From Treponema sp. J25 (GTDB lineage: Bacteria; Spirochaetota; Spirochaetia; Treponematales; Breznakiellaceae): DNA of 64,000 nucleotides. The notes under the pieces are model-generated. The model was not told the DNA's origin, made no database searches, and was given only the letters and a program-made list of their open reading frames with translations. The position numbers and the translations under genes are program-made. Every line of letters begins with the position of its first letter. Position 1 is the first letter of the stretch. Positions 5,904 through 61,484 of the stretch are shown piece after piece. The stretch covers positions 9,287-73,286 of the forward strand of contig NZ_PTQW01000032.1 of assembly GCF_004343725.1 (NCBI RefSeq), given 5' to 3'.

Positions 5904-7190
5904 ATGCACGAATATTATATTGAAGGAGGGTATCCCCTCGGCGGAACCCTTGTAGCAAGTGGTAATAAAAATGCGGCCCTTCCCTGTATTGCGGCGGCCC
6001 TGCTTACCGATGAACCGGTAGTGCTTTCTAATATTCCCCTTATAGAAGACGTTCAGGTAATGCTTGATATCTACCGAGCCCTGGGGGGAACGGTAGAATC
6101 CCTGGGGAACCACACCTATCGATTACAGATTACCAATATTCAACACACCGAAATTCCCGTGGCCCTGGCAAAGAAAATCCGGGCATCCATCCTCTTTGCG
6201 GGTCCCCTTCTGGCCCGGGCGGGGGTGGTGGAACTGCCCCCACCCGGGGGAGACGTGATCGGGCGGCGCCGGCTGGACACCCATTTCCTTGCCCTTACCG
6301 AACTTGGCGCTCAGGTCGACATAAACGGGACCTTTCGATTCACCGTTCCGACTACCTTGCAAGGGGCGGATATTTTCTTAGACGAAGCTTCGGTAACGGC
6401 CACCGAAAACGCCATCATGGCGGCAGTGCTGGCCCGGGGGACAACCCGCCTTACCAATGCGGCCAGTGAACCCCATGTGCAGGACCTCTGCCGGATGCTG
6501 GTCCAGATGGGGGCCCGCATCCAGGGGATTGGATCCAATGTGCTCACCATTGAGGGGGTAAAACGCCTTTCAGGCTGCACCTTTGAAATTGGTCCCGACT
6601 TTATGGAAATCGGCTCCTTCATCGGCCTTGCGGCGGCTACAAAAAGTGAACTCACCATCGAAAAAACCCGCCCTGAAGATCTGCGACCCGCGAAAATCGC
6701 CTTTAACAAGCTGGGAATTCGCTGGGAAGTTTCGGGATCCACCATTTATGTGCCCGCCCAGCAGGAACGGCGGGTAAACTGTGACCTCGGCGGCATGATT
6801 CCCAAAATAGATGATGCCCCCTGGCCCGGATTTCCGCCGGATCTTACGAGCATCATCACGGTAGTAGCAACCCAGGTGGAAGGGACGGTCCTTGTTCATG
6901 AAAAGATGTTTGAGTCCCGCATGTTTTTTGTGGATAAATTGATAGGCATGGGAGCCCGCATCGTCCTGTGCGATCCGCACCGGGCAGTCGTAAGCGGCCC
7001 AGCTCAACTCAGTGGGTCAGAACTTACTTCCCCCGACGTCCGGGCCGGAATGGCCATGGTCATTGCCGCCCTTTGCGCCCGGGGCAAGAGTATTATTCGT
7101 AATGTATACCAGATTGAGCGGGGATACGAATCGCTGGTAGAACGCCTTGCCGCTATAGGGGCCCATATTACCCGCCACGGAGAATGTTAG
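5904..7190 (+). CDS. murA: UDP-N-acetylglucosamine 1-carboxyvinyltransferase
   Basis: 428 aa with an N-terminus typical of MurA (…GGTLVASGNKNAALPCIAAALLTDEPVVLSNIP…) and full-length similarity to the EPT family. Confidence 0.9.
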   Translation: MHEYYIEGGYPLGGTLVASGNKNAALPCIAAALLTDEPVVLSNIPLIEDVQVMLDIYRALGGTVESLGNHTYRLQITNIQHTEIPVALAKKIRASILFAGPLLARAGVVELPPPGGDVIGRRRLDTHFLALTELGAQVDINGTFRFTVPTTLQGADIFLDEASVTATENAIMAAVLARGTTRLTNAASEPHVQDLCRMLVQMGARIQGIGSNVLTIEGVKRLSGCTFEIGPDFMEIGSFIGLAAATKSELTIEKTRPEDLRPAKIAFNKLGIRWEVSGSTIYVPAQQERRVNCDLGGMIPKIDDAPWPGFPPDLTSIITVVATQVEGTVLVHEKMFESRMFFVDKLIGMGARIVLCDPHRAVVSGPAQLSGSELTSPDVRAGMAMVIAALCARGKSIIRNVYQIERGYESLVERLAAIGAHITRHGEC

Positions 7191-7211: not shown

Positions 7212-8996
7212 CTAGGTCTTCTGAGCCCCCAGCGCAAAAAATCCCAGGAACAACAAAGCCCCATAACTTCCCAGAAGAATAAACAGGGTAGGCAAGAAAG
7301 ACACCGATACCAGTAAATAGAGATAGATATCCGAAAGAACGGTGGTGCCCATCTGGTAGGCAGGAATCGTAAGGACAGGAAGTAAACCGAGAAACACCAA
7401 AGAGAGGAAGCCTACTTTTCCCGTACTTCTGAGTCTCCATGCTCCTACCAGAACAAAAATAGCCAGGGTCAAACAAAAGAAGGGATCAAATATATACATG
7501 AGAAGGGTCTGCTGTTGGAACACACTGTTTATGTCTTTCTGGGGGACCCTTAGGCTATTCCATAAATCCACCACCGACTGAGTCTGAGGCGCCTTTTGAG
7601 AGCGGATTTGATAATAGAGATCACCGAAAGACAGAGGGAAAACAACAAAGGTCTTATCTTGAGATTTTTTGCCATTTATTGTAGGAAGATACTGGATCGT
7701 TTCATTTTTTCTATCTATCGCTTTTAACAGAAGGATCGTAGCAGATTGTCGGGAAGCAGGACCTGTGGTTTGGGGAATGATTTTACCATAGGGCGCCTGG
7801 ATAGTCTGGAGCATCGCACCCTTTTTATCCACCGTCATAACAGAAAGGTCCAGCAGGTATACCGCATCGCTTACAAAAGAAATTTGGCGAGCCGCGAGAA
7901 CGGTCAGAGTGCCCGCCGACGTTTTATCATCCGGCAGTGGCAACAGAACGTCCACATAGGGTTCTCCCAGATTAGTGGTAATTTCATCAATAAAAAAGGC
8001 AATTTTCTGGAGTCCCCGTAATGCCAGAGGATAATAGGTTATTACATCGGGATCCTTGGGATATTGTTCAATAAGACGGGCATACACATAATAGGCCTTT
8101 TGGTACTCTTCCGCAAGAAGCGCCATATACCCTTCTTGCTTTTGTTTAAAAAGGGTATATCGTTCTGTTTCTTTCTTATCGGGCGTAAGGTTCTGTATTG
8201 CTTCCCAGGTCTCGGAGGCAATCCTCTGGCCTTCTGTTTGTTCCAGGGTTCCCGGCGAAGCCAAACGGATGGCAAGGGAAGCAAGCCAATGCGCATCATA
8301 GAGGCGCCCGGAGGCTTTTGCCTTCTTTGCCTGTTGGAGGGCCTCCGAAGCCTTAAGATTCGCAGGAATACCCTTTAAGGCAGGAACGGTTCCTTCTGGC
8401 GTTATCACAAGCCCCGACGGAGGCTGCTTTTTTTGAAGGCTAAATTCTTGAACCCGCTCCTTTTCTAGTTCCGTGGCTACCGTGTCTCGGATACCAACAA
8501 GCTCTGGATCACCCTTCCAGATTTCTTCACATAAAGTCAAATGGAAGGCCGCTTCTTTCCATGATTTTCTTTGTACTTCTGCCTGAAGTAACGATTTGGC
8601 CCGTTCATAAATATACTTTTTTGTTTTCATTGTTTCCAGGGAATTTACACAAAGGGGACGCACCAACAGAAGTAAAAGGCTGTATAAAACAACCACAATT
8701 ATAATCTGAACAATTATATTCCCCATAAATTTCATAAATTCCAAAGAAAAACGTTCTGTAGAAGGCGCTTTCTGACTATACAGGCCGATACTGGTGATGA
8801 TCGCACAAAAGAGCACGGGTGGAATAAGAGGGATAGTTCTTTCTATGGCGGTACAAAAAATCCAATTACCTGCGAAACCAGGCAAAGGGATATGGGACTG
8901 TTCTACGAAAAAACTAACAATAACGTTTCCGCCCAGTATTATGAGGGCATACACCAAAAGGGAAAGAAGAAGAGAAGGTCTTCGTTGTTCATTCAT
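7212..8996 (-). CDS. Hypothetical membrane protein with TM segments at both ends and a TPR-like helical middle
   Basis: 594-aa ORF with hydrophobic N- and C-terminal regions and a helical-repeat central region; no specific family recognised. Confidence 0.45.
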   Translation of the reverse strand: MNEQRRPSLLLSLLVYALIILGGNVIVSFFVEQSHIPLPGFAGNWIFCTAIERTIPLIPPVLFCAIITSIGLYSQKAPSTERFSLEFMKFMGNIIVQIIIVVVLYSLLLLLVRPLCVNSLETMKTKKYIYERAKSLLQAEVQRKSWKEAAFHLTLCEEIWKGDPELVGIRDTVATELEKERVQEFSLQKKQPPSGLVITPEGTVPALKGIPANLKASEALQQAKKAKASGRLYDAHWLASLAIRLASPGTLEQTEGQRIASETWEAIQNLTPDKKETERYTLFKQKQEGYMALLAEEYQKAYYVYARLIEQYPKDPDVITYYPLALRGLQKIAFFIDEITTNLGEPYVDVLLPLPDDKTSAGTLTVLAARQISFVSDAVYLLDLSVMTVDKKGAMLQTIQAPYGKIIPQTTGPASRQSATILLLKAIDRKNETIQYLPTINGKKSQDKTFVVFPLSFGDLYYQIRSQKAPQTQSVVDLWNSLRVPQKDINSVFQQQTLLMYIFDPFFCLTLAIFVLVGAWRLRSTGKVGFLSLVFLGLLPVLTIPAYQMGTTVLSDIYLYLLVSVSFLPTLFILLGSYGALLFLGFFALGAQKT

Positions 8997-9046: not shown

Positions 9047-9955
9047 CTAGTCATACCGTCGCTCCTTGTCGCCTGCCAGGTACAATAGAAGATCCAACAG
9101 ATTGCAAAGCAGGGCCCCCGCAACACAGGCAAAGGGCTGCACCTGTTCAGGGGTAAGAAGGCCGTAGCTATATTTGCTCATAAAACCAGTAAATTGAGGT
9201 TCGAAAAGGGGTTGAATTAAAATTAACCAAAGACCTCCTATTGTAATCGCCCAGATCATGTTGATAAATGGCCACGAACGGATTCTCAGGAAAACTCGAA
9301 GGGATATTAAGAAATATGCAAGGCTGAGCACACAGAAAAGAAAAGCGGGGAACCCCTTCTGCCATTGGTCTTTAAGATAAGATGCGGCCCTTCTTATAGA
9401 TGTATGTATAATTTCCGGGAAAATAAAAGAATAGGCTGTTCCATAAAAAGAAAGAGGGGTGTCGGTAGATTGTACCTGCGGGCCCTTTTCTCCAAAGACA
9501 AGGATTACCGAGCGTTCTTTCTCTGCAGTAAAAAGATACAAGGCTTCCTGAGAATTGCTCTTAACTCTTGTTCCCATTCGGAGAAAAGAAACGGAAGATG
9601 GTACGGGAGAGGAAGCATCTTTATAGGTAGGGGCAGAGCCTGGTATCACCGAGGTAAAACCAAGGATGGTAAGGGATACTCCGGACAGTACAGTAAGGAT
9701 CATAATAACAAAAGGAGCAAGTATTTTTTTTCGTATTCCGTAACCATTTCCCAGGCTAATCATGCCTATAAAGGCGAGAATAGCCGCTTCCCATATTCTT
9801 TCTCCCCCTATCATTTCCCTTGAATTAGAGATAATAGGAGGATAGATACTAAACCCCTTAGTTCTCTCATGGAGTTCTAATAAAAGCTGTACACTGAAAA
9901 CAAGCACCCCAAAAGTGATACCACTTAATAAAATAAGCTTCGCTATCCTCTTCAC
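9047..9955 (-). CDS. Hypothetical polytopic membrane protein
   Basis: 302-aa ORF with several hydrophobic segments. It lies downstream of the repeat-bearing AT-rich region on the same strand. Confidence 0.45.
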   Translation of the reverse strand: MKRIAKLILLSGITFGVLVFSVQLLLELHERTKGFSIYPPIISNSREMIGGERIWEAAILAFIGMISLGNGYGIRKKILAPFVIMILTVLSGVSLTILGFTSVIPGSAPTYKDASSPVPSSVSFLRMGTRVKSNSQEALYLFTAEKERSVILVFGEKGPQVQSTDTPLSFYGTAYSFIFPEIIHTSIRRAASYLKDQWQKGFPAFLFCVLSLAYFLISLRVFLRIRSWPFINMIWAITIGGLWLILIQPLFEPQFTGFMSKYSYGLLTPEQVQPFACVAGALLCNLLDLLLYLAGDKERRYD

Positions 9956-10054
9956 CTTGATTCTAGCCTATCATGCAACCCCAAGGAATGCAAGTTTTAT
10001 TCATTAAAAAAGTCAATCAGAATATACCGCTTATACAGAAGGAGTCCACAAAGA

Positions 10055-10306
10055 TTTCACAAGTTATCCACAATTTATGTTACACTTTTTTGTCCGGACT
10101 GGAGATTTTTTAGAAAATAGGAAAAATATACTTTTCTTTTTTTAAGTCACCAAACACCATCTTCTTATTTTATTTCATTTTTATACAAATAATTATAAAT
10201 ATTTAAAAAAAGCTATGTATACTTTTATTCCATAAAAGTGTATACAAAGATATACGGAAAGAAACTGTTTCTCTTATTTCACAAATTATCCACAATTTGT
10301 TCACAT
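10055..10306. promoter_or_regulatory. AT-rich ~400-bp intergenic region with two ~30-bp direct repeats, each made of three T(T/C)CACA(A/T) units at 11-bp periodicity
   Basis: Repeat 1 is TTTCACAAGTTATCCACAATTTATGTTACAC and repeat 2 is TTTCACAAATTATCCACAATTTGTTCACAT (10277-10306); they are 222 bp apart. Each contains a perfect TTATCCACA 9-mer (10064-10072 and 10286-10294). GTATAC palindromes lie between them. Confidence 0.6.
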
Positions 10307-10357
10307 TTAGAAATGTTAGATACATCACACAGAGACATTAAACTTCTCACAGAATCA

Positions 10358-11032
10358 CTAGAACTTTTCTTCCGCCCGAGGTTCCTGATATTCTAACTGA
10401 TACCCTGTTCCTCGTACAGCACGAATAGTTACCTGCCCCTGAAACAAACAAACCAATGCTATTTTTTTCCGGAGTCGGCTGATATACACATCTACAATTC
10501 TACTTTGTCTGTGGCTCTCGTCGCTTAGCTCTTTATACACATGCCCTCGAACGAGTATACGGGATGGATTATGGAGGAAATGGGTCATAATCATAACCTC
10601 AAAAGGATTAAGATACACCTTTCCTGCCGGTCCTATGAGGAAACATCGGTCTAACCATACAGGGCTATGAGAAGGCGGTTCCTTTTGAACCTTTTCTAAT
10701 TCCTTGAAAGCATAGACTAAGCGGCTATCAAATTCTTTCGCGTTAAAAGGAAAAGAAAGATGATCCAAGGCCCCTGCTTTAAAGGCCCGAGAGATATATT
10801 CTACCTTGCCAAAGGTGATAAACGGAACAGAGAGATGGACCTTCCCAAACGAACCCACCTCTTCAAATGGAACAAGAAATAGACAATCCTTTACGAAGGA
10901 GCTTTTACCTTCTGTATCTTCGGCAGGCAACCAACGACAGACCCGATAGAGACCCTTTCTCCGCCGTATCCACTCTTCTATCACCGGAGAAACACGAAAA
11001 AGGTAAAGGGTCTTTTCCGAGCCCGCGCTCAT
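10358..11032 (-). CDS. Atypical OmpR/PhoB-family regulator: C-terminal winged-helix trans_reg_C domain and an aspartate-less receiver-like N-terminus
   Basis: The C-terminus (…VYISRLRKKI…IRAVRGTGYQLEY) matches the OmpR wHTH. The N-terminal region keeps the receiver-like K…PF element (KAGALDHLSFPF) but lacks the acidic pocket and the phospho-acceptor Asp (CLFLVPFEE). Confidence 0.55.
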   Translation of the reverse strand: MSAGSEKTLYLFRVSPVIEEWIRRRKGLYRVCRWLPAEDTEGKSSFVKDCLFLVPFEEVGSFGKVHLSVPFITFGKVEYISRAFKAGALDHLSFPFNAKEFDSRLVYAFKELEKVQKEPPSHSPVWLDRCFLIGPAGKVYLNPFEVMIMTHFLHNPSRILVRGHVYKELSDESHRQSRIVDVYISRLRKKIALVCLFQGQVTIRAVRGTGYQLEYQEPRAEEKF

Positions 11033-11055: not shown

Positions 11056-11760
11056 TTATTTTTCTTGTTTGGTTCCATCCGGCAGGGCCTGCATTTTCTG
11101 CTTCAATTCTTCCAGCATCAAATCCGCCGAGGCAGAGGATTTCTCTAGTTCCGCAAAACGCTTCTCAAGGCTTGCATTTTTAGAAAGGTCCTCCAGTTCT
11201 TTTGCCGCATCGGCCTCTGCCTCTAATTGATCCACCTTTTGGGCCATTCGATCAAAGGCTTCGAAGGCACTGGTATTACCCGTCACATTGGAGATGGTCT
11301 TCTGGATCTTCTGCTGCGCCTCAGCCCGCTTAGCCCGGGCAATCAGCAGGTTCTTCTTACGCTGGGCCTCTTCTATCTTCGTCTGCAGTTCCTTAAGGGA
11401 TTCCTTCAGTTTTTCCACCGCCGCTTTTTGGGCTTCCCACTGTTTTTTATATTCGACGTAGTTATTTTCATGCTCCTGCTTTCTGAGGAGGGCTTCCTTT
11501 GCAAGATCGTCCTGCCCGGCCCGGACCGCCAGCATAGCCTTCCTCTCCCATTCCTGGGCCTGGGCTTGCTGGTTCAACATTTCCCGTTCGAGCTTTTTTT
11601 CATCCGCAATAGCCAGGGCAACCCCTTTCTTTGCTTCGATTAACTGCTCATTCATATCGATGATCAGCTGATTCAGCATTTTCTCGGGGTTCTCAGCCTT
11701 ATTGATCATATCATTTACATTTGAAGCAATGAGGGTTTTTAAGCGAGAAAAAATACCCAT
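11056..11760 (-). CDS. pspA: PspA/IM30 family protein (phage-shock protein A / Vipp1-like)
   Basis: N-terminus MGIFSRLKTLIASNVNDMINKAENPEKMLNQLIIDM is canonical for PspA/IM30, and the protein is coiled-coil rich throughout. Confidence 0.85.
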   Translation of the reverse strand: MGIFSRLKTLIASNVNDMINKAENPEKMLNQLIIDMNEQLIEAKKGVALAIADEKKLEREMLNQQAQAQEWERKAMLAVRAGQDDLAKEALLRKQEHENNYVEYKKQWEAQKAAVEKLKESLKELQTKIEEAQRKKNLLIARAKRAEAQQKIQKTISNVTGNTSAFEAFDRMAQKVDQLEAEADAAKELEDLSKNASLEKRFAELEKSSASADLMLEELKQKMQALPDGTKQEK

Positions 11761-11773
11761 GCTGATATTCCTC

Positions 11774-12172
11774 CTATTTGTGGGGTTCCCGATACTGGGA
11801 GAGTATAGGATAATGCTGGGTTAGGGCAAGGCTAATCGCTTCCAGGGACGCCCGAAATTCTTCATAATCCATGGTATCGTATTCCAGCGTATCGATAAGG
11901 ACTATATCGTCTCCTTCCAGGGCATAGGCCCCATGGACAAGGTCACTGCTATTAAGTTCCAGGAGTTTAGTAAACAAGGGAAGCCGATTTTCCTTAGGGG
12001 CCTTCATGACAAGAACCCGAATAATTACCACCGGCGGCTCCAATAACACCACCACACCGTTTAAGCTATGGGGCTCATCTTCGATGATCCATAGATTCTT
12101 TTCTACCTCCCGGTAACTTACCATCATATTGATAAGATACCGTTCGATCTTGTTTTCCTGTAGCTCTCCCAT
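11774..12172 (-). CDS. Hypothetical small protein, possibly YbjN-like
   Basis: 132 aa; the assignment rests on a weak recalled resemblance to YbjN-domain proteins. Confidence 0.35.
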   Translation of the reverse strand: MGELQENKIERYLINMMVSYREVEKNLWIIEDEPHSLNGVVVLLEPPVVIIRVLVMKAPKENRLPLFTKLLELNSSDLVHGAYALEGDDIVLIDTLEYDTMDYEEFRASLEAISLALTQHYPILSQYREPHK

Positions 12173-12217: not shown

Positions 12218-12865
12218 CTATCCTAAGAACACCTGCCCTGCATTATCAATCGCCAGAATAGTTTTACATTCGGAGCACCGGAAGCGCCCTGCCTTTACGG
12301 CCTTTAACTTTTTAGAACATATGGGACAGGAGAAAATCTTGGGGAATACCGAACTTGATTCGGTGGGAACGGCGGAACGGAAAAAAGAAATAGCATCTTC
12401 TAGGTTTTCTTTGATGTTAAAAAACTGGGAGAACCCCAAAAGCTGGAATACTTCGTATACCTTGGGCTGAATTTCCAGCAGAACCAAATCGCCGCCCCGG
12501 GGCTTCACGGACTTTAAAAAGGCCGTAAAAGACCCAATCCCCGTGGAAGATACGTAATTGAGGCCACCACATTGAAAAATGAGCCGGATAAAGCCCGCTT
12601 CAATAGCCTTTGCTACCCGCTTTTGGAAATAGTTCGAATTGTACGTATCAATGTAACCGGTGAGATACAGGATAAGACATCCTTCCACATCATGCACCTT
12701 TTCGAGCTTAATCTTAAGGCTATCATCCTTCTCATCATCAAAACCAGGCACAATATCGTTATTTGTCATGACACTCCTTCCATTCTGGGTGTTGGAGTAT
12801 GGCTCGCGCCCCCAGACATCCCACGACCTCATTATATTATTATGTGGCTCCCTGCTTTTTGTCAA
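12218..12865 (-). CDS. STAS-domain protein (anti-sigma-factor-antagonist fold) with a C-terminal CxxC…CxxC zinc ribbon
   Basis: STAS core (…LYLTGYIDTYNS…GGLNYVSSTGIGSF…LVLLEIQPKVYEVFQLLGF) followed by CPICS…CSEC. The true start is probably an internal Met. Confidence 0.55.
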   Translation of the reverse strand: MTKSREPHNNIMRSWDVWGREPYSNTQNGRSVMTNNDIVPGFDDEKDDSLKIKLEKVHDVEGCLILYLTGYIDTYNSNYFQKRVAKAIEAGFIRLIFQCGGLNYVSSTGIGSFTAFLKSVKPRGGDLVLLEIQPKVYEVFQLLGFSQFFNIKENLEDAISFFRSAVPTESSSVFPKIFSCPICSKKLKAVKAGRFRCSECKTILAIDNAGQVFLG

Positions 12866-16916: not shown

Positions 16917-18437
16917 TCATTGCTGTGTGTTCGTTGACTTCCCTTCCGAGCCAACGGGTTCATCTTTCGCTTCCGCTTCTTCCTGGAGTTGCTTTAAGGT
17001 TTTGCTTTGTTTTATCAGTTCCGGTACGTTCTTTTCTTTCAACACCCGGACTGCGGCTTGTAATTGTATATCAAATTCCAAATCGTACACCGGGGCAATC
17101 TTGGTACGCATCTGTTCATTGTGGATAAGCCGCCGCACCAATTGAAAATCCAGATTGTAGGTTGTGGCCACCTGGCGGGCAAATTCCTCGATCCTCTGGG
17201 GACTGGCATTCCCTTCATTTTTTACAAAATTGGGAATCCTGTTATCCTGGTACAGCTTGTTGAGCGATTCAAGCTGAACTTCGGTCAGCTCCGGTTCTTT
17301 CACCTCCATGTCCGGGGGGATACCCTTTTTATCAATATTTACATCGCTGGGGGTATAGTATCGGGCAGTGGTAAGTTTAAAGCCCGCCGTATCAATGGGG
17401 AACACCTGCTGGACGGAACCCTTCCCGTAGGAACGCTCTCCAATAAGATAGGCCCGTCCCCGATCCTTCAGAGCCCCTGCCACAATTTCCGAAGCCGAGG
17501 CAGATGCCCGATTAATTAATACCACCACAGGAATAGAAGGCGGTACTAACGGATTCCGACGGGCCGTATACACCACACTTTCTCCGGGCAAACGGGATTT
17601 GGTAGAAACCACCACTCCCCCATCCAGGAAGAAATCGGCTACCCCAATAGCAGCATTGAGAAGACCACCATAATTATTGCGGAGATCCACAATACAGGCC
17701 TGGTAGTTCTTCTTTTTAAAATCTTCTATTGCTTCTCGGGTTCGTTCTACCGTCATAGGGGTAAACGTAAGGATCTTTAAATACCCAATAGAATCGCCAA
17801 TCATGGCATGTTTTACGGTGGGAACCTCTATGACTGCCCGTTTCAGGGTCAGGGGGAATTCCATCTTTTCTCCCCGCCGGATTCGAATGGTCACTTCTGT
17901 ACCCGGTTCTCCCCGCAGGCGGGAGAGCACCTCATCCATGGTAAGCTTATCGGTGGATTCACCATTGATTTCCAGAATGAGGTCCCCAGGCATAATACCA
18001 GCCCGCCACCCCGGAGTGTCTTCGATAGGGGCAGCTACTTCCACGTAGGGAAGCTTCCCTTCCGGAAGCTTGCCCGAAGGCTTAGAGATATAAAGACCTA
18101 CTCCCCCAAAGGATCCCTGGGTGGTATCATTTAGATCGGTCATATCCGATTCAGTAAGATACGTAGAATAGGGGTCCTCCAGGGCTTCAAACATCCCTTT
18201 CATGGCCCCTTCGTAGAGGACCCGGGGGTCTACCTGATCGACATAGTGATTCAAAATAAAGTTGTACACGTTCTGAAGAATGGCAGAATAGTTCTGCTGA
18301 CTTTTTTGAGTATTCTGTCCCACCACCTGGGAAACAATAACGAGGGAAAAGAAAAGTCCTATACACAGGGTCGTTCCCAGCCAGGTTCTTCGCACAATAC
18401 GAGAGCGTTTATCGCTCGATGCTTGTTCGTAGTTCAT
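16917..18437 (-). CDS. Carboxyl-terminal processing protease (S41 family, PDZ-containing)
   Basis: PDZ domain (GIMPGDLILEINGE) and S41 catalytic region (…NRASASASEIVAGALKD…GERSYGKGSVQ), with an N-terminal signal/TM segment. Confidence 0.85.
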   Translation of the reverse strand: MNYEQASSDKRSRIVRRTWLGTTLCIGLFFSLVIVSQVVGQNTQKSQQNYSAILQNVYNFILNHYVDQVDPRVLYEGAMKGMFEALEDPYSTYLTESDMTDLNDTTQGSFGGVGLYISKPSGKLPEGKLPYVEVAAPIEDTPGWRAGIMPGDLILEINGESTDKLTMDEVLSRLRGEPGTEVTIRIRRGEKMEFPLTLKRAVIEVPTVKHAMIGDSIGYLKILTFTPMTVERTREAIEDFKKKNYQACIVDLRNNYGGLLNAAIGVADFFLDGGVVVSTKSRLPGESVVYTARRNPLVPPSIPVVVLINRASASASEIVAGALKDRGRAYLIGERSYGKGSVQQVFPIDTAGFKLTTARYYTPSDVNIDKKGIPPDMEVKEPELTEVQLESLNKLYQDNRIPNFVKNEGNASPQRIEEFARQVATTYNLDFQLVRRLIHNEQMRTKIAPVYDLEFDIQLQAAVRVLKEKNVPELIKQSKTLKQLQEEAEAKDEPVGSEGKSTNTQQ

Positions 18438-51890: not shown

Positions 51891-53158
51891 ATCACGCTCC
51901 TTATAGCAATTACCGGATCCAGTTGGGCCGCCCTTCGACTGGGTAAATACGACACCAGCAATGAAACAAGCACCCCGATGCCAAACATCATAAGGCTCCC
52001 CGGAATGCTAACCACCGTATAAAAGATGGGATCCATGGGAAACGTAAGGCCCGACATGGCCGAGGTATAATCGATACCCACAATAGAGAAGAGGTAACAG
52101 ATTCCCAGTCCCAACAGGGCCCCGATACCACTTCCCACAATCCCCATGGCCAGGCCTTCGCTGATAAAGAGGGCTAGAATTTCCCTCTTTTTAAGTCCCA
52201 TGGCTTTAAGGATACCTATCTCCCGCCGGCGCTCCAGCACCACCATCATCAAGATATTCGAAATGATAAGGGCCCCTAAAAAGGCGATGACCCAGTAGAT
52301 AACCCCGTATATAGTCTCCATCATTTTGATGAGCCGGGGATAGTCCCCGATCTCCGTCCAGGGCTTTACCAGGAGATCCGTCTGTACCGGGGCAACCAGT
52401 TGGGCCACGCGGCGGGCGATTTCCGGAGCCCTGGTATAATCCCGCAGCATGATAAGAATTTGCTGGACCCCACCACCGGTTCGCAGGAATTCCCGGGCAT
52501 CCTCCAGGGGAATCTGGAAAAAGGTTCGGTCCATCTGGGTAAGCCCCGTTTTAAAGAGCCCCACGATTGTAAAATTGCGAAGCCGTAAACTGGAATCGGC
52601 CCCCTGGGTTAAAATCCGCAGGGTATCTCCTACGCTGAGTCCCAACTTCTCTGCAAGCTGATACCCCAGGATTACCTCCCGATTTCCCCCGAGGTAGCGC
52701 CCCTGTACAATACTTCTATCTAAATTGAGCAAGTACTGTTCTACCTTCGCATCCCCCGCGATACCCATAGCAGCCACCGTAGTCGGACCGCTCGAAAGAA
52801 GGGTCCCAAAGGTAATCCGGGGGGCGATATACTGAATCTCCTGAGAAAGGATCGCATCCTCCCGAAGACGGGAGAGAAGCTCTTCGGGATCCAAAACCAG
52901 TTCATCCAGGGGCATAAAACGGGCCCGTTCATCAAAGCCCCGGGTGGTAATCCGAATGTGACCGCTTTCATTTTTGGTGATGTTCTTCACCAGATTCTGA
53001 AGCACCCCATTGGCAAGGCCATACATAAAGGACATGAGCATCACCGAAAGGGTGATGGAACTGACGGCTAACAGGGTTCTCCGACGGTTCCGCCGGATAT
53101 TTCGAAACGCCATAGCAATTATCCACATAGGAGCCTCCCTATACAAAGCGCAGGGCAT
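51887..53158 (-). CDS. ABC transporter permease, FtsX/LolE-like
   Basis: FtsX-like C-terminal 4-TM bundle plus a MacB_PCD-type periplasmic domain. It overlaps both neighbouring genes. Confidence 0.8.
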   Translation of the reverse strand: MPCALYREAPMWIIAMAFRNIRRNRRRTLLAVSSITLSVMLMSFMYGLANGVLQNLVKNITKNESGHIRITTRGFDERARFMPLDELVLDPEELLSRLREDAILSQEIQYIAPRITFGTLLSSGPTTVAAMGIAGDAKVEQYLLNLDRSIVQGRYLGGNREVILGYQLAEKLGLSVGDTLRILTQGADSSLRLRNFTIVGLFKTGLTQMDRTFFQIPLEDAREFLRTGGGVQQILIMLRDYTRAPEIARRVAQLVAPVQTDLLVKPWTEIGDYPRLIKMMETIYGVIYWVIAFLGALIISNILMMVVLERRREIGILKAMGLKKREILALFISEGLAMGIVGSGIGALLGLGICYLFSIVGIDYTSAMSGLTFPMDPIFYTVVSIPGSLMMFGIGVLVSLLVSYLPSRRAAQLDPVIAIRSVI

Positions 53159-56298: not shown

Positions 56299-56700
56299 CT
56301 ATTCCTCCTTAAACTCCTGTATAAGTTGAATGAGTTCTTCCTTATTTTTTACACCCAGGGCTTCCATCTCCCGGAAAAAGCGCCCCAGGCATTCTTCTAT
56401 CTTTTTTTGCCGTTCCGCCTCTTCGATATCGATCTTTTTATCCGAAATGTAGGTGCCGCTCCCCACCTGGGTTACCACGAGGCCCCGGAGTTCCAGTTCG
56501 TTGTAGGCCTTGGCGATGGTGTTCGGATTTATCTGCAGTTCAATGGCCAGGGACCGAATGGTAGGCAGCCTATCCCCCGGCACCAGGCGACCCGCCAGAA
56601 TCGCCTGTTCTACCTGCTGGATAATCTGCCGATAAAAGGGCACCCCCGAGGCGGGATCCAGGATAAAATCGATTTTATGGCGTATATTTGAACTACTCAT
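56299..56700 (-). CDS. GntR-family transcriptional regulator (short YtrA-like)
   Basis: wHTH region …VPFYRQIIQQVEQAILAGRLVPGDRLPTIRSLAIELQINPNTIAKAYNELE…; length 133 aa. It heads the SPFH-ABC operon. Confidence 0.8.
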   Translation of the reverse strand: MSSSNIRHKIDFILDPASGVPFYRQIIQQVEQAILAGRLVPGDRLPTIRSLAIELQINPNTIAKAYNELELRGLVVTQVGSGTYISDKKIDIEEAERQKKIEECLGRFFREMEALGVKNKEELIQLIQEFKEE

Positions 56701-56703
56701 CTA

Positions 56704-56736
56704 TGACAATTGTACTATTGTTATAGTACAATGTCA
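56704..56736. promoter_or_regulatory. Near-perfect 33-bp palindrome TGACAATTGTACTAT-TGT-TATAGTACAATGTCA abutting the GntR gene start; candidate operator
   Basis: Read directly from the sequence. GntR operators are typically (T)GT-N-AC(A)-containing palindromes. Confidence 0.5.
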
Positions 56737-57030
56737 AGACAAAACAGGAAATTTCCCCGTGAAATAGGTGCGAAGCATGTACCGGTTACCGAGAAGCAGG
56801 TGAGGCGAATCATGGTTCGGACCAAATTACAAGCGATTTTCCCAGGTCGGAATCTGTCAAAGGCCCGACAGGAGCATAAAAAGTATCCGTATCTTCTTGC
56901 TGGCAATAAAATACGATATCCGAATCAGGTGTGGGCAACTGATCTGACCTATATCAAGCTGCCTTCGGGTCATGTCTATTTGATGGCAATCATTGTGGAC
57001 CTGCCCCGGTATAGTGGAGAGGTAGTTAAG
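56710..57030 (+). mobile_element. IS3-family transposase OrfB internal fragment (remnant A), truncated at both ends
   Basis: …VTEKQVRRIMVRTKLQAIF…KYPYLLAGNKIRYPNQVWATDLTYIKLPSGHVYLMAIIVD… is a typical IS3 OrfB N-terminal region. It is cut off at ~57026 exactly where the minus-strand copy ends. Confidence 0.7.
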
Positions 57031-57545
57031 CCTCTTTTCGTGCAACCATCGCGGGAGCTTTGTAGCCGTTCCGCGAATACAGCCTGATCCGATTATAGTA
57101 CACCTCGATGTATTCGAACACCGCCGACTTGACGTTCCGGCGGGATTTCCATCCGTCCAGTTCTTCCACTTCCCGTTTCAACGTCTTGAAAAAGGATTCC
57201 GCACAGGCATTGTCCTAGAGTTGCCCTTTCGCGACATGCTCCTGACCAGCATCGGAAGTGCCGCCGTCGAGGCTTCGCAAAATGCCGCCCCGCAGTGCAG
57301 GAAGGTTTGCGGCCGTTCCCTGCGTAGTACCCCGATGCGCTGACGGTAAGAACCTTTGCCATCTTCCCAATCGACCAACGATTCCGGTGGGCGTCCATGA
57401 ACCGAAAACTCATCTCTGTTTTCCGTTCACCGAGAAGATGGCTACCGCTTTTTTTAGTATTTCATTCGCCTCGCGGAGGTCCTCAACCTCGCGTAAGAGT
57501 CTGGTTATACTGAGCCCAGGTTGAAAGACCAAGGACGCGCAAGAA
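57026..57545 (-). mobile_element. IS3-family remnant B (minus strand): OrfA C-terminus, A7G slippery site, and OrfB disrupted by a frameshift and stop
   Basis: Minus-strand translation gives …LREVEDLREANEILKKAVAIFS… across CTAAAAAAAG, and …MDAHRNRWSIGKMAKVLTVSASGYY…ESFFKTLKREVEELDGWKSRRNVKSAVFEYIEVYYNRIRLYSRNGYKAPAMVARKEA* ending at 57026-28, with an internal TAG/frame break near 57215. Confidence 0.7.
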
Positions 57546-57552
57546 CTAAGGT

Positions 57553-58330
57553 GTGAATCGCCTCCTTGAGAGACAGGAGGAAGGAGGCGTAGAATCAGCC
57601 ATGCGCAAGCACTACGACAAAGAGTTCAAGGCCAAAGTAGCCTTGGATGCGGTACGGAGTGAGAAAACGATCCAGGAGATCGCGAAGGCCTTCGCGGTTC
57701 ATCCGAACCTCGTGAGCCTTTGGAAAAGACAGTTGCTCGAGAACGCGGGCAAGCTCTTTGAATAAAGAAGGGAAGGACAAGACAGCGGAAGAGGCCGAGC
57801 GGAAACAGGACCAGCTGTACAGGCAGATCGGTCAGCTCCAGGTGGAGAACGAGTTTCTAAAAAAAAGTACAGGCAACTGTACGGGACCGAGCCCAAGTTG
57901 TAGAGCCGGATGATCCGGAGCTTTCGATTCGGAGACAGTGCGAGCTTCTATCGATCAGCCGGACGGCCTACTACTACAAGCCGAAGAAGGAGGAGGAAAC
58001 CGAGGATCCCGAGCTGGGCATACTGCTCGCGATTCTGGACGAACTGCGGGAGCATCCCTTCTACGGGTACCGGAAGGTCGCCCTGGCGGTTTCGTACCTC
58101 GTGGTAAGCAGGAAACAGGTCCGCAGGATCATGGGAAAGACAGGCTGAGGACTATGTACCCTGGGGAACAGCTGTCCAAGCCGGACCGGAAGCATCCGAA
58201 GTATCCGTACCTGTTGAGGGGAAAGACGATCTGGATGCCCAATCAGGTATGGGCCTCCGAGATGAACCCCAATGAACCGGAGAAACACGGAGGGCCTCTT
58301 TACCCTGGACCGCAGGCTAAAACTGGTGCT
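57553..58330 (+). mobile_element. IS3-family remnant C (plus strand): OrfA with a frameshift, poly-A slippery site, and a 5' part of OrfB with a further frameshift, 3'-truncated
   Basis: MRKHYDKEFKAKVALDAVRSEKTIQEIAKAFAVHPNLVSLWKRQLLENAGKLFE*. The next frame gives …EEAERKQDQLYRQIGQLQVENEFLKKS…, then …RQCELLSISRTAYYYKP…GYRKVALAV…, then …KYPYLLRGKTIWMPNQVWASEM, after which homology is lost. Confidence 0.7.
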
Positions 58331-58344
58331 AACGTAAGGGGGCT

Positions 58345-59885: not shown

Positions 59886-61484
59886 TTGTCTGCCATGGAT
59901 TCTCATGATACTATGAAAGATATGGCAAAGACAGTCTCGGTTCTGGTGACCTTTATAGGAAATCGGGATCCCTATCCACAGGATGATGAAACTCCGGGGC
60001 CTATTCTATCCTTTTTATTGCAGCATCCGGTAGATATCGTTTATATGCTTTGCAGCAGCGCTGCCTACCATGAGCGAGCCCAAGATTTAATAAGAGAAGC
60101 TAAAGATGAAGGATTGGTCACCAAATTCGAAACGGTAGATTTTTATGTTCCCGATGTGGTCGATTACGGAATAATCTGGGAACGGTTGCTCATGAGTCTT
60201 ACGGATATACAACAGCGTGTTCATGAACATCTTCCAGTACGGATAAGTGTAGAATGGCTTTTTTTACTGGACTCCGGAACCCCGCAGATGAAATCCTGCC
60301 TTTTTCTTGCTGCCGCGACACAACAATTTCCGGCTCGTCTTTACCAGGGCATTCCGCCAGCCTTCTCCGGTGGAGCCTATAAGAGCCGCCAAGTAAACAT
60401 AGAACCTTTTTCTTTTATGCGGCCTGCATTCATTGTGGAAGGGAAGGTTCCAAATGTATATGAGGCTGATATAGGAGCGAATACAAATACCACTGGGAGT
60501 AATGCTCCCAAATATCGGGAAGCAGAAGAACGGGCATTGCGTATTGCCCGATATGAAGACCCGGTACTGCTTTTAGGCGAGACCGGTACAGGAAAAACCA
60601 GAATAGCCCGTCAGATACATGATGCGAGTCCCCGGAAAAGCGGGCCATTTGTAGAAGTAAATTGTTCAGCTATTCCGCGGGATCTAGCAGAAAGCGAACT
60701 TTTTGGTCATGTCCAGGGAGCCTTTACCGGAGCCAATAAAAATCGAAGCGGCAAAATCCGGGCTGCTCAAGGGGGGACCCTGTTCCTTGACGAAATCGGA
60801 GACCTGCCGCTGGAACTGCAGGTTAAGCTCCTTAAGGTGTTGGAAGAACACACCCTGTATCCAGTTGGCTCCGATGAACCTGTTACGGTTAATGTCCGGC
60901 TTATCGCGGCAACCCACCGGGATTTAGAACACATGGTAAAAGATGGCAGTTTTCGTAAGGACTTGTACCAGCGCCTTAAGGTTGTTGTCATTCGGCTTCC
61001 GCCTCTGCGGGACCGCAAAGAAGATATTTTACCTCTGGCTGACTATTTCCTTGATGAACGGAACCGTAAATATGGGGAACATAAGGAGCTTTCTGAGGCA
61101 GTAAAAAGCCGTTTGCTTGAATACTCGTGGCCCGGAAATGTCCGGGAATTGCGGAATACGATAGACAGCGCCTGTTCCATATCCCAGAAGGAGCTCATCG
61201 AGCTGGATGTATTGCCCGAAGAATTACAAGCTGGCACCTGGAGTAAGTATGGAATGCACGGCGCGTCTGGTGATATGCCGGGGGAGATCCTGCCTCCGGA
61301 AGGCTTGGATCTGCGGGCCCGACTGCTCCAAATGGAATGGAGTTATGTAGCGGCGGCTTTGCGCAGAACCGGAGGTAACCGGGAAGCGGCGGCAAAACTT
61401 TTGGGCATGACTGGTCATGCGTTTCGCAAGGCCCTACGGGAACGGCTTGCCGGTTTTTTCGAAAACGAATGGGAAGGAGAATAA
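59886..61484 (+). CDS. RtcR-family σ54-dependent transcriptional activator: N-terminal CARF domain, σ54-interaction AAA+ domain, C-terminal HTH
   Basis: AAA+ motifs [14 protein letters not shown] loop, …LFLDEIGDL…. The N-terminus (…[10 protein letters not shown]…[28 protein letters not shown]…) aligns in my recall with the E. coli RtcR CARF region (…HITTGTHVAQICWFLLAEARYLPARLIQ…). At 532 aa it matches RtcR in length. The exact start is uncertain (Met at 59886, 59895 or 59922). Confidence 0.8.

Follow-up and report, generated by a model that had tools for sequence, protein, structure and literature searches.

The mechanisms of the sites that control DnaA from outside the replication origin (datA, DARS and DnaA-box clusters) are, to our knowledge, understood only in Escherichia coli and Bacillus subtilis, and we know of almost no studies of replication control in spirochaetes. 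The B. subtilis clusters contain many DnaA boxes without a fixed geometry. Situated at non-origin loci, they regulate their neighbours and damp initiation (PMC3245932), and at E. coli datA the essential boxes run in one direction, the lengths of the intervals are optimised, and looping has been proposed to join the box-bound DnaA molecules (PMC5742627). Here we describe an intergenic element from a stretch of 64,000 nucleotides of Treponema sp. J25 (contig NZ_PTQW01000032.1, positions 9,287 to 73,286; hereafter the window), in which two perfect DnaA boxes, each within a short array of weaker copies, lie about 222 bp apart. We call this element the module. It lies downstream of a gene for an aspartate-less OmpR-family regulator in a psp operon, and an original prediction had read its two repeats as operators of that regulator, with the caveat that DnaA could bind as well. 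In our reading, the repeats would be the anchors of an old, free-standing two-DnaA-box module, comparable to datA or to a DnaA-box cluster, to which the psp regulator is an incidental neighbour in this lineage; we give this reading a probability of about 0.62. As far as the sequences go, its distinctive point is a DnaA-box element of fixed geometry with two anchors, which is kept in more than one spirochaete order and serves again at the dnaA promoter, and no published description of such a two-anchor module was found in the literature searched.

Like datA, the DnaA-box locus at which DnaA-ATP is hydrolysed in a datA-dependent way, and DARS1/2, the module is non-coding and intergenic, stands away from the unwinding origin and carries strong boxes in the same direction with an adjacent low-affinity box, and like datA it has a constrained box-to-box interval. 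Unlike these sites, it has two strong boxes only and no IHF consensus between them, and its hosts are Spirochaetota and not Proteobacteria; no sequence homology is claimed by this comparison, and a role of the module in the nucleotide state of DnaA is hypothetical. It shares with the B. subtilis clusters the placing of boxes at non-origin loci, whereas its anchors are exactly two, ~222 bp apart and syntenic near murA across two spirochaete orders. Where a copy of the module stands at the dnaA promoter, one of its boxes falls in the promoter spacer, and in this it resembles the DnaA-autoregulated dnaA promoters. On a finer scale, strong boxes followed by weaker boxes of the same orientation, with 2-bp spacers and an 11-bp period, recall the low-affinity arrays by the R boxes of E. 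coli oriC and the tandem boxes 6/7 of the basal unwinding system (PMC8287927); unlike both of these, the module is without DnaA-trios, a GC cluster or a skew switch.

The module is built on a 23-nt direct repeat (10054-10076 and 10276-10298, 96% identical, 222 bp from start to start), in and around which TYCACAW units follow one another at an 11-bp spacing (10045/10056/10067 and 10278/10289/10300). The doublet pattern of these units has four exact matches in the window, all in the two repeats, against 0.29 expected, and perfect TTATCCACA boxes number five in the 64 kb against 0.47 expected. The original prediction was right about the repeats, the spacing of their units and the perfect DnaA-box 9-mer in each (Table 1). 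Its placing of them about 50 bp downstream of the regulator holds for the nearer repeat only, as the two stand 222 bp apart and bracket an AT-rich stretch, and the interval to which it assigned the feature (10055-11032) leaves out the opening unit of the distal repeat, which lies at 10045. The unit of array A at 10042-10050 sits in a stretch of ~36 bp seen only in the clade of the window, and in the related locus L001 the third unit of array B is TTATTCACA, with one mismatch to the perfect box. Because the arrays are invariant in close relatives and the spacer is as conserved as the flanking genes, the repeats are real, non-random and under selection. A small plus-strand open reading frame (ORF) over array A (9973-10113, 46 amino acids (aa)) was rejected as coding; it measures 46, 57 and 36 aa in relatives and its changes are non-synonymous. 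Three more perfect DnaA boxes occur in the window (6929-6937 and 17120-17128 on the minus strand, 53119-53127 on the plus strand), and the one of these three that lies inside murA is also found in L001 and L126-128.

Among the orthologous loci, both arrays are invariant in three close relatives whose regulators are 91, 71 and 63% identical to that of J25, and the intergenic spacer is 75% identical to that of L004, like coding sequence, while the other spacers of the locus reach 12-66%. The gene order STAS-CesT-PspA-regulator-spacer-membrane pair-(DnaJ)-murA is kept even where the regulator is only ~25% identical (L126-128 and L129), and in L126-129 the spacer, which has otherwise diverged, holds two perfect TGTGGATAA boxes and no more, both pointing the same way. 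The box 9-mer is invariant in L001, L003, L004 and L126-129, and the spacing from box A to box B is 221-223 bp in all orthologous loci, whereas the outer half-sites change or disappear between lineages when L126-129 are compared with the window. What is invariant in the relatives of ~25% identity is the whole 9-mer TGTGGATAA followed by C, and then a weaker copy of the 9-mer in 11-bp register; because of this, the unit is best described as a tandem DnaA-box signature and not as a 7-bp half-site. Since the DnaA helix reads TnCACA, with Arg399 reading TTA (PMC5742627), the T(T/C)CACA half-site corresponds to the major-groove half of a DnaA box. Locus L125 keeps the psp operon and the regulator with another downstream gene and has no box at all. 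Taken together, the arrays most likely bind DnaA rather than the neighbouring regulator, so that the caveat of the original prediction appears to be the better reading of its own observation.

A metagenome collection was scanned with the pattern TGTGGATAAYYTG-N(205-213)-TGTGGATAAYYTG, which returned 98 loci. About 20 of these are ordinary multi-box origins with 6-25 perfect boxes, and 72 of the 98 are two-box modules (≤4 perfect boxes within 300 bp, mostly exactly two). Conservation was calculated on 59 non-redundant modules. Several of the positions that the search pattern left free are conserved, namely T at +13 (55/59 and 59/59), G/T at +14, A at +16 (44-50/59) and A at +18/+19, and at +9, which the pattern left open to C or T, 57 of the 59 modules have C. 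The second unit reads TGTKnAwAA, which is a degenerate DnaA box in exact 11-bp register, and a faint third unit follows; the TAAC that would be a mere spacer between half-sites is as conserved as the half-site, and the next unit keeps an A-(T/A)-A-A tail. The distance between the boxes has its mode at 222-223 bp (219 bp in one module, 220 in two, 221 in five, 222 in 14, 223 in 17, 224 in seven, 225 in five and 226 in eight) and departs from uniform (chi-square ~40, 8 degrees of freedom), a value that has to be read with the relatedness of the sequences and the clipping of the distribution by the search range. The AT content peaks at 0.72-0.77 in the centre of the module, and in about 15 of the 59 the best palindrome has its centre +110.5 to +113.5 from box B. 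The gene upstream of box B is in every case co-directional, and its 3' end is ~5-165 bp away. Several of the central palindromes (L197, L142, L177, L179, L222 and L135) have arms of up to 18 bp and stand nearly midway between the boxes; in L135 the sequence differs and yet the central dyad persists, an apparent case of compensatory change. In L130, L187, L196 and L178 the pattern fell on GC-rich long direct repeats, each with one TGTGGATAA and unrelated to the AT-rich module (that of L178 resembles a duplicated coding segment), and these loci were left out of the module statistics.

The genes around the module differ widely. Regulator presence was judged with a hidden Markov model in the 57 modules that have ≥650 bp of upstream sequence: a regulator of the family lies upstream in 17 of them and in 40 there is none, and a tblastn search found no family member anywhere in the available locus sequence of those 40. 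By tblastn, the module occurs in the full psp-regulator-module-membrane pair-murA arrangement, as PspA-module or STAS-module (both without the regulator gene), as regulator-module-murA with convergent genes and no membrane pair, and as module-murA alone in Sphaerochaetaceae, again lacking the membrane pair and with dnaN-dnaA 8-11 kb off in two loci. In at least eight further loci the order is module-dnaA-dnaN, and the DnaA proteins of these loci cluster with those of Treponema and Rectinemataceae.

In the dnaA-linked modules, counting 300 bp to each side, the perfect boxes number just two, and they stand 222-226 bp apart. Seven modules of this type share a promoter that resembles TTG(ATA/CAT/CCT/CTT/CTA)-18-TATA(T/C)A and contains box A in its 18-bp spacer, and in all four that were translated the ATG of dnaA follows 44-45 bp after box A. 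Because box A occupies this place between the two promoter elements, the module copy before dnaA looks like an autoregulatory operator in the classic layout of a DnaA-autorepressed promoter. The dnaA-dnaN spacer of these loci carries a box, a GC cluster, the trios TTA TTA CTA CTA CTG and then AT-rich DNA, and since the DnaA-trio unwinding element lies there, the dnaA-linked loci have their origin in that spacer, outside the module. The rules of the basal unwinding system are tandem boxes, a GC cluster and ≥3 DnaA-trios within 16 bp (PMC8287927). Clear signatures of it were observed in the dnaA-dnaN spacers of L139, L141, L166, L180, L213 and L226, which are good candidates for oriC in Treponema-like spirochaetes.

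In the window, too, the module is not the replication origin. We regressed the GC skew at third codon positions (GC3 skew) on gene strand, which separates a strand-independent (replication) term from the coding term. The replication term is -0.108 ± 0.026 to the left of the spacer (8 genes) and -0.084 ± 0.024 to its right (10-30 kb, 18 genes), hence of the same sign. The pooled right-minus-left differences range from -0.044 to +0.040 in the four contexts without dnaA, each within ~1.2 standard errors of zero, and amount to -0.084 ± 0.056 in the dnaA-linked two-box loci, which is not origin-like, compared with +0.086 ± 0.045 in the multi-box oriC controls; neither the window nor the pooled loci show the GC3 skew switching polarity at the module. 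After box A of the window only TTT TTT GTC follows, behind a 13-bp spacer, which passes a loose trio rule and is absent in L126 and L129; there is no run of YTA repeats in the window, and no DnaA-trio or GC cluster beside the boxes is conserved across the orthologues. Neither dnaA nor dnaN is found among the scanned ORFs that flank the module in the window. The module of the window has two perfect boxes and a few with 2-3 mismatches, as against the many tandem perfect boxes of L042, a dnaA-dnaN spacer of Sphaerochaetaceae that came up among the matches listed in a genome-collection scan for three TTGTGRA-type half-sites. L042 is a genuine spirochaete oriC and is made of tandem TTGTGGATAAC 11-mers; the 11-bp period of TGTGGA cores is therefore a mode of DnaA-box array in this phylum.

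In the mechanism that we propose, DnaA would bind the strong box at each end (perfect TGTGGATAA-C) and would spread as a short head-to-tail oligomer onto the in-phase and progressively weaker boxes, one or two per end. The two assemblies might then touch each other via a loop, the ~222 bp being equal to ~21 helical turns with a flexible AT-rich centre. The outcome could be the control of DnaA itself, by titration or through its nucleotide state, as at E. coli datA and the B. subtilis clusters, or else a DnaA-dependent control of local transcription. In the regulator-module-murA and module-murA contexts the genes on the two sides converge on the module, which speaks more for a free-standing function in controlling DnaA than for that of a simple promoter operator. 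If this is true, the two-anchor module of ~222 bp in Treponematales and Sphaerochaetaceae would be a compact system for DnaA looping and oligomer nucleation, and would give a concrete handle on replication control in spirochaetes. A bolder version, which strikes us as decidedly unlikely, is a spirochaete DnaA-control element, datA/DARS-like outside Proteobacteria, syntenic near murA and duplicated at the dnaA promoter, on whose TnCACA units the regulator of the J25 lineage also docks; with such docking, membrane stress would feed directly into DnaA availability and replication initiation.

The neighbouring protein of 224 aa is confirmed as a full-length OmpR/PhoB-type regulator with a receiver-like domain that lacks the aspartate, as had been predicted. 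Its Trans_reg_C domain (PF00486) lies at residues 139-213 (E 3.4e-12), and Pfam gives no Response_reg match in the protein, even at E 0.1. The PDB matches include effector domains of BaeR, AdeR and PhoB, and the NCBIfam and PDB alignments to whole response regulators extend back to residues 70-85, in the alpha4-beta5-alpha5 region. With hhalign, the family profile aligns end-to-end (residues 1-217, probability 99.9%, E 2.8e-31) to canonical OmpR/PhoB regulators. In this profile-profile alignment no acceptor aspartate aligns, D53 of PhoB standing opposite a 4-residue gap of the family while V54-P55 align with L-P of PhoB; the acidic pair after beta1 is replaced by R13-V14, followed by S15, the Lys of beta5 is replaced by F94, and the Thr of beta4 alone survives, as T73. 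To judge from its residues, among which the Asp, the acidic pair and the Lys are all missing, the regulator is not open to phosphorylation at the canonical site. The AlphaFold2 model, of low confidence (mean predicted local distance difference test 63.5), shows alternating beta/alpha receiver-like elements with alpha2 missing and then a winged helix-turn-helix (wHTH), and its full-length Foldseek matches are BaeR, KdpE, RpaA, RitR, CosR and HP1043. A HMMER search returned one close cluster and relatives of 200-230 aa with 21-31% identity, aligned over nearly the whole length, and the source label of the family members, where given, is Spirochaetales. Residues G75, G87, P95, E100 and R104 are invariant in the family and alpha4-beta5-alpha5 is the best-conserved part of the pseudo-receiver, the face through which the regulator probably dimerises.

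Like HP1043, ChxR, RitR and CosR, the regulator combines a receiver-like domain and a wHTH without the acceptor, and no HisKA or HATPase domain was found among the scanned genes flanking it. It differs from them in having lost all three acidic pocket residues as well as the Lys, in the 4-residue deletion of the family at the position of the Asp, in its STAS-CesT-PspA operon and in that the family was seen in spirochaete-labelled records only, where labelled. As the acceptor pocket is missing and no kinase gene lies nearby, the regulator is probably controlled by protein partners and not by a kinase; by analogy, PspA of E. coli sequesters PspF. With this pseudo-receiver OmpR family and its tie to STAS-CesT-PspA, the Psp envelope-stress systems gain a candidate regulator that would work without a kinase. 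At the positions that we take, from the PhoB-DNA structure, to contact bases, the orthologues carry VY, IT, ET and MH, and the DNA site stays constant while these putative recognition-helix residues vary. In some lineages box B overlaps the stop codon of the regulator gene (L129 6643-6651; proteins P0009, P0012 and P0015), where TGT GGA TAA encodes the final Cys-Gly-stop, and the DnaA box therefore constrains the C-terminus of the regulator there.

The arrays could instead be operators of the adjacent aspartate-less regulator, bound head-to-tail on T(T/C)CACA(A/T) to control the membrane genes or its own operon, with an incidental match to DnaA boxes. The geometry fits this, in that three half-sites at 11-bp spacing are the OmpR/PhoB arrangement and TCACA-type half-sites in 11-bp direct repeats are used by PhoP and MtrA of Mycobacterium tuberculosis; moreover, the window and 17 of the 57 assessable modules have the regulator gene next to the site, and the proximal unit of array A overlaps TGGACT, a -35-like element of a predicted promoter. 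We nevertheless hold this to be quite improbable, for the other 40 of the 57, including modules upstream of dnaA, are without the regulator and L125 has the regulator without the module, while the conservation of TAAC at the level of the half-site, the DnaA-box tail of the neighbouring unit, the variable or lost outer half-sites and a recognition helix that varies over a constant site all point away from the regulator. The conserved psp promoter, a plain TTGACA-17-TAATAA(T), holds no TYCACAW array either. The two-box architecture lies by dnaA in at least eight loci and is mostly without the regulator gene, which by the terms of the original prediction goes largely against it, and its operator claim is the part not supported. 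The lesson is that an 11-bp TnCACA array by a wHTH gene can be a DnaA-box array and not an OmpR operator. Both proteins might also share the site, DnaA on the strong boxes and the regulator on the TnCACA units as well, competing or cooperating, which would link the Psp envelope-stress operon to DnaA activity. The response regulators Spo0A, MtrA, CtrA and HP1021 act within DnaA-box regions (review PMC4285127), which establishes such binding as a precedent; as in those cases, the regulator gene stands beside DnaA boxes and the half-site resembles TnCACA, whereas here the binding is hypothetical and the module is not an origin. The TYCACAW units that the clade of the window has beyond the universal box and weak box, and the overlap of box B with the regulator stop codon in some lineages, would suit dual occupancy, yet the flanking units carry no regulator-specific signature, and the unit of box and weak box is identical in loci with or without the regulator; we regard dual occupancy as unlikely.

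A purely local role, as a promoter or terminator cassette framed by DnaA boxes or else as a small RNA gene, insulating the psp operon or driving the downstream genes, would agree with the short distance (~5-165 bp) between box B and the 3' end of the co-directional upstream gene, with the promoter-like TATACA-18-TATAAT inside the interior and with the copy before dnaA, which clearly holds a promoter. Its chances are slim in our view, as there is nothing downstream to drive where the module lies between convergent genes (regulator-module-murA and module-murA), no internal promoter position is conserved, Rfam gives no match and the hairpin is not significant. It is more doubtful still, and indeed highly improbable, that the spacer is a chromosomal replication origin, primary or auxiliary, whose boxes flank an AT-rich unwinding region. 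For an origin speak the two perfect boxes and their weaker companions, the AT-richness of the interior, a conservation equal to that of coding sequence and the position of the Sphaerochaetaceae module 8-11 kb from dnaA-dnaN. Against it, the GC3 skew does not switch in the window or the pooled loci, no DnaA-trio or GC cluster beside the boxes is kept across the orthologues, the scanned flanking ORFs of the window include no dnaA or dnaN, and the dnaA-dnaN spacer of related spirochaetes holds an unwinding element that is clear. The free-standing DnaA-box module that we prefer has points against it as well. The occupancy of the boxes by DnaA is one that we infer, the two strong boxes are fewer than those of datA or the B. 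subtilis clusters, OmpR/PhoB-family sites, too, typically have 11-bp direct repeats and half-sites of the TCACA type, the regulator gene directly precedes the module in those 17 of 57, and no single genome is shown with both a dnaA-linked and a murA-linked copy. The scan pattern required the 9-mer and YYTG, so that invariance of the 9-mer among the modules is by construction, and it limited the start-to-start range to 218-226 bp, which clips the spacing distribution, 8 of the 59 modules being at the upper edge. Across the 59 modules, moreover, no sigma-70 promoter was found at a conserved position inside the module, and the IHF consensus is not enriched between the boxes (1/59 interiors against 1.9 in shuffles).

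In the window, the genes run on the minus strand in the order STAS-CesT/YbjN-PspA-regulator, followed by a 402-bp spacer (9956-10357), two membrane proteins and the convergent murA (Table 1). The cluster mates of the window MurA are labelled Termitinemataceae or Treponemataceae. A weak LptF_LptG match was found in an orthologue of the 594-aa membrane protein, and the genes upstream of the regulator include SDR and SpoU besides STAS, CesT/YbjN and PspA; the pairing of CesT with PspA is a known Psp theme (PMC11237479).

Table 1. Positions of the module, its boxes and the surrounding genes and signals, numbered from the first letter of the 64,000-nt window
Feature	Position	Strand	Remarks
Array A	10042-10084	+	GAGTCCACA (3 mismatches), GATTTCACA (4), TTATCCACA (0), degenerate unit ending TGTTACA
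Box A, perfect DnaA box TTATCCACA	10064-10072	+	same orientation as box B, 222 bp away
AT-rich module interior	10073-10285		bracketed by the two arrays
Array B	10275-10308	+	TATTTCACA (3 mismatches), TTATCCACA (0), TTGTTCACA (2); in phase, 2-bp spacers
Box B, perfect DnaA box TTATCCACA (TGTGGATAA on gene strand)	10286-10294	+	64 bp past the regulator stop codon
Inverted repeat GTATA-N6-TATAC	10240-10255		shared with L126, L155, L135 and L179
Weak AT-rich hairpin, then T-run	~10204-10245	-	-7.5 kcal/mol
Candidate promoter of the membrane pair	TTGCAT (9993-9988), 17 bp, TAGGCT (9970-9965)	-	9 nt before GTG at 9955
Membrane-protein pair (downstream)	302 aa, 9047-9955; 594 aa, 7212-8996	-	open reading frames
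MurA	5904-7190		convergent with the minus-strand gene run; identical to WP_132781387.1
Pseudo-receiver OmpR/PhoB-type regulator, 224 aa	10358-11032	-	last gene of the STAS-CesT/YbjN-PspA operon
PspA	11056-11760	-	Pfam
CesT/YbjN-like protein	11774-12172	-	Pfam
STAS with zinc ribbon	12218 to ~12769	-	Pfam
psp operon promoter TTGACA-17-TAATAA(T)	12865-12837	-	kept in L001, L004, L126, L129 and L125

The 10-11 kb bin, in which the module falls, is the most AT-rich of the window (GC 0.379). An inverted repeat, GTATA-N6-TATAC, stands ~40-60 bp after box B and is common to distant psp-type modules (L197 too), including loci without the regulator gene; it may be a site for some dimeric protein. The terminator-like hairpin inside the module was rejected, being no better than shuffles (z -1.47), and Rfam returned zero matches across the window. 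Read from the sequence, TTGCA(T/A)-17-TA(G/C)GCT stands 8 nt before the GTG in L126 and L129, and the corresponding TTGCAT-17-TAGGCT of the window is a candidate for the promoter of the downstream membrane pair. A distance of 8-9 nt from the GTG would imply a leaderless or nearly leaderless mRNA for the 302-aa membrane protein. Because box A lies ~70 bp upstream of the -35 element of this conserved candidate promoter in the lineage of the window, a transcriptional effect of box A on the membrane pair is possible. TTGGGGTTGCAT, which stands before the membrane gene, was rejected as a sigma-54 signal on inspection of its GG-GC spacing.

Some minor observations concern the flanks of the module. 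The STAS ORF as listed (12218-12865) takes as its start a TTG that is the TTG of the -35 hexamer of the psp operon promoter; translation probably begins at the ATG near 12769, which stands behind GGAAGGAG and gives 183 aa. A sigma-54-activator-like AAA+ gene recurs upstream of the module/psp block (L140 3048-4256, L145 1549-2808, L126 906-2060), with RsmE further upstream in L140 and L126, and this recurrence would fit an ancestral gene order RsmE ... module ... murA that took up the psp genes and the membrane pair by insertion. Far from the module, a GntR-like gene (56299-56700) and degenerate fragments of an IS3-family transposase, both identified by eye, occupy 56299-58340 of the window; two ORFs without a Pfam match, a sigma-54 activator (59886-61484), a Cas_APE2256-family gene and Cas6 come next, up to 63874. 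The GC3-skew term changes sign at ~57 kb (5 genes only), which probably reflects an acquired or inverted island.

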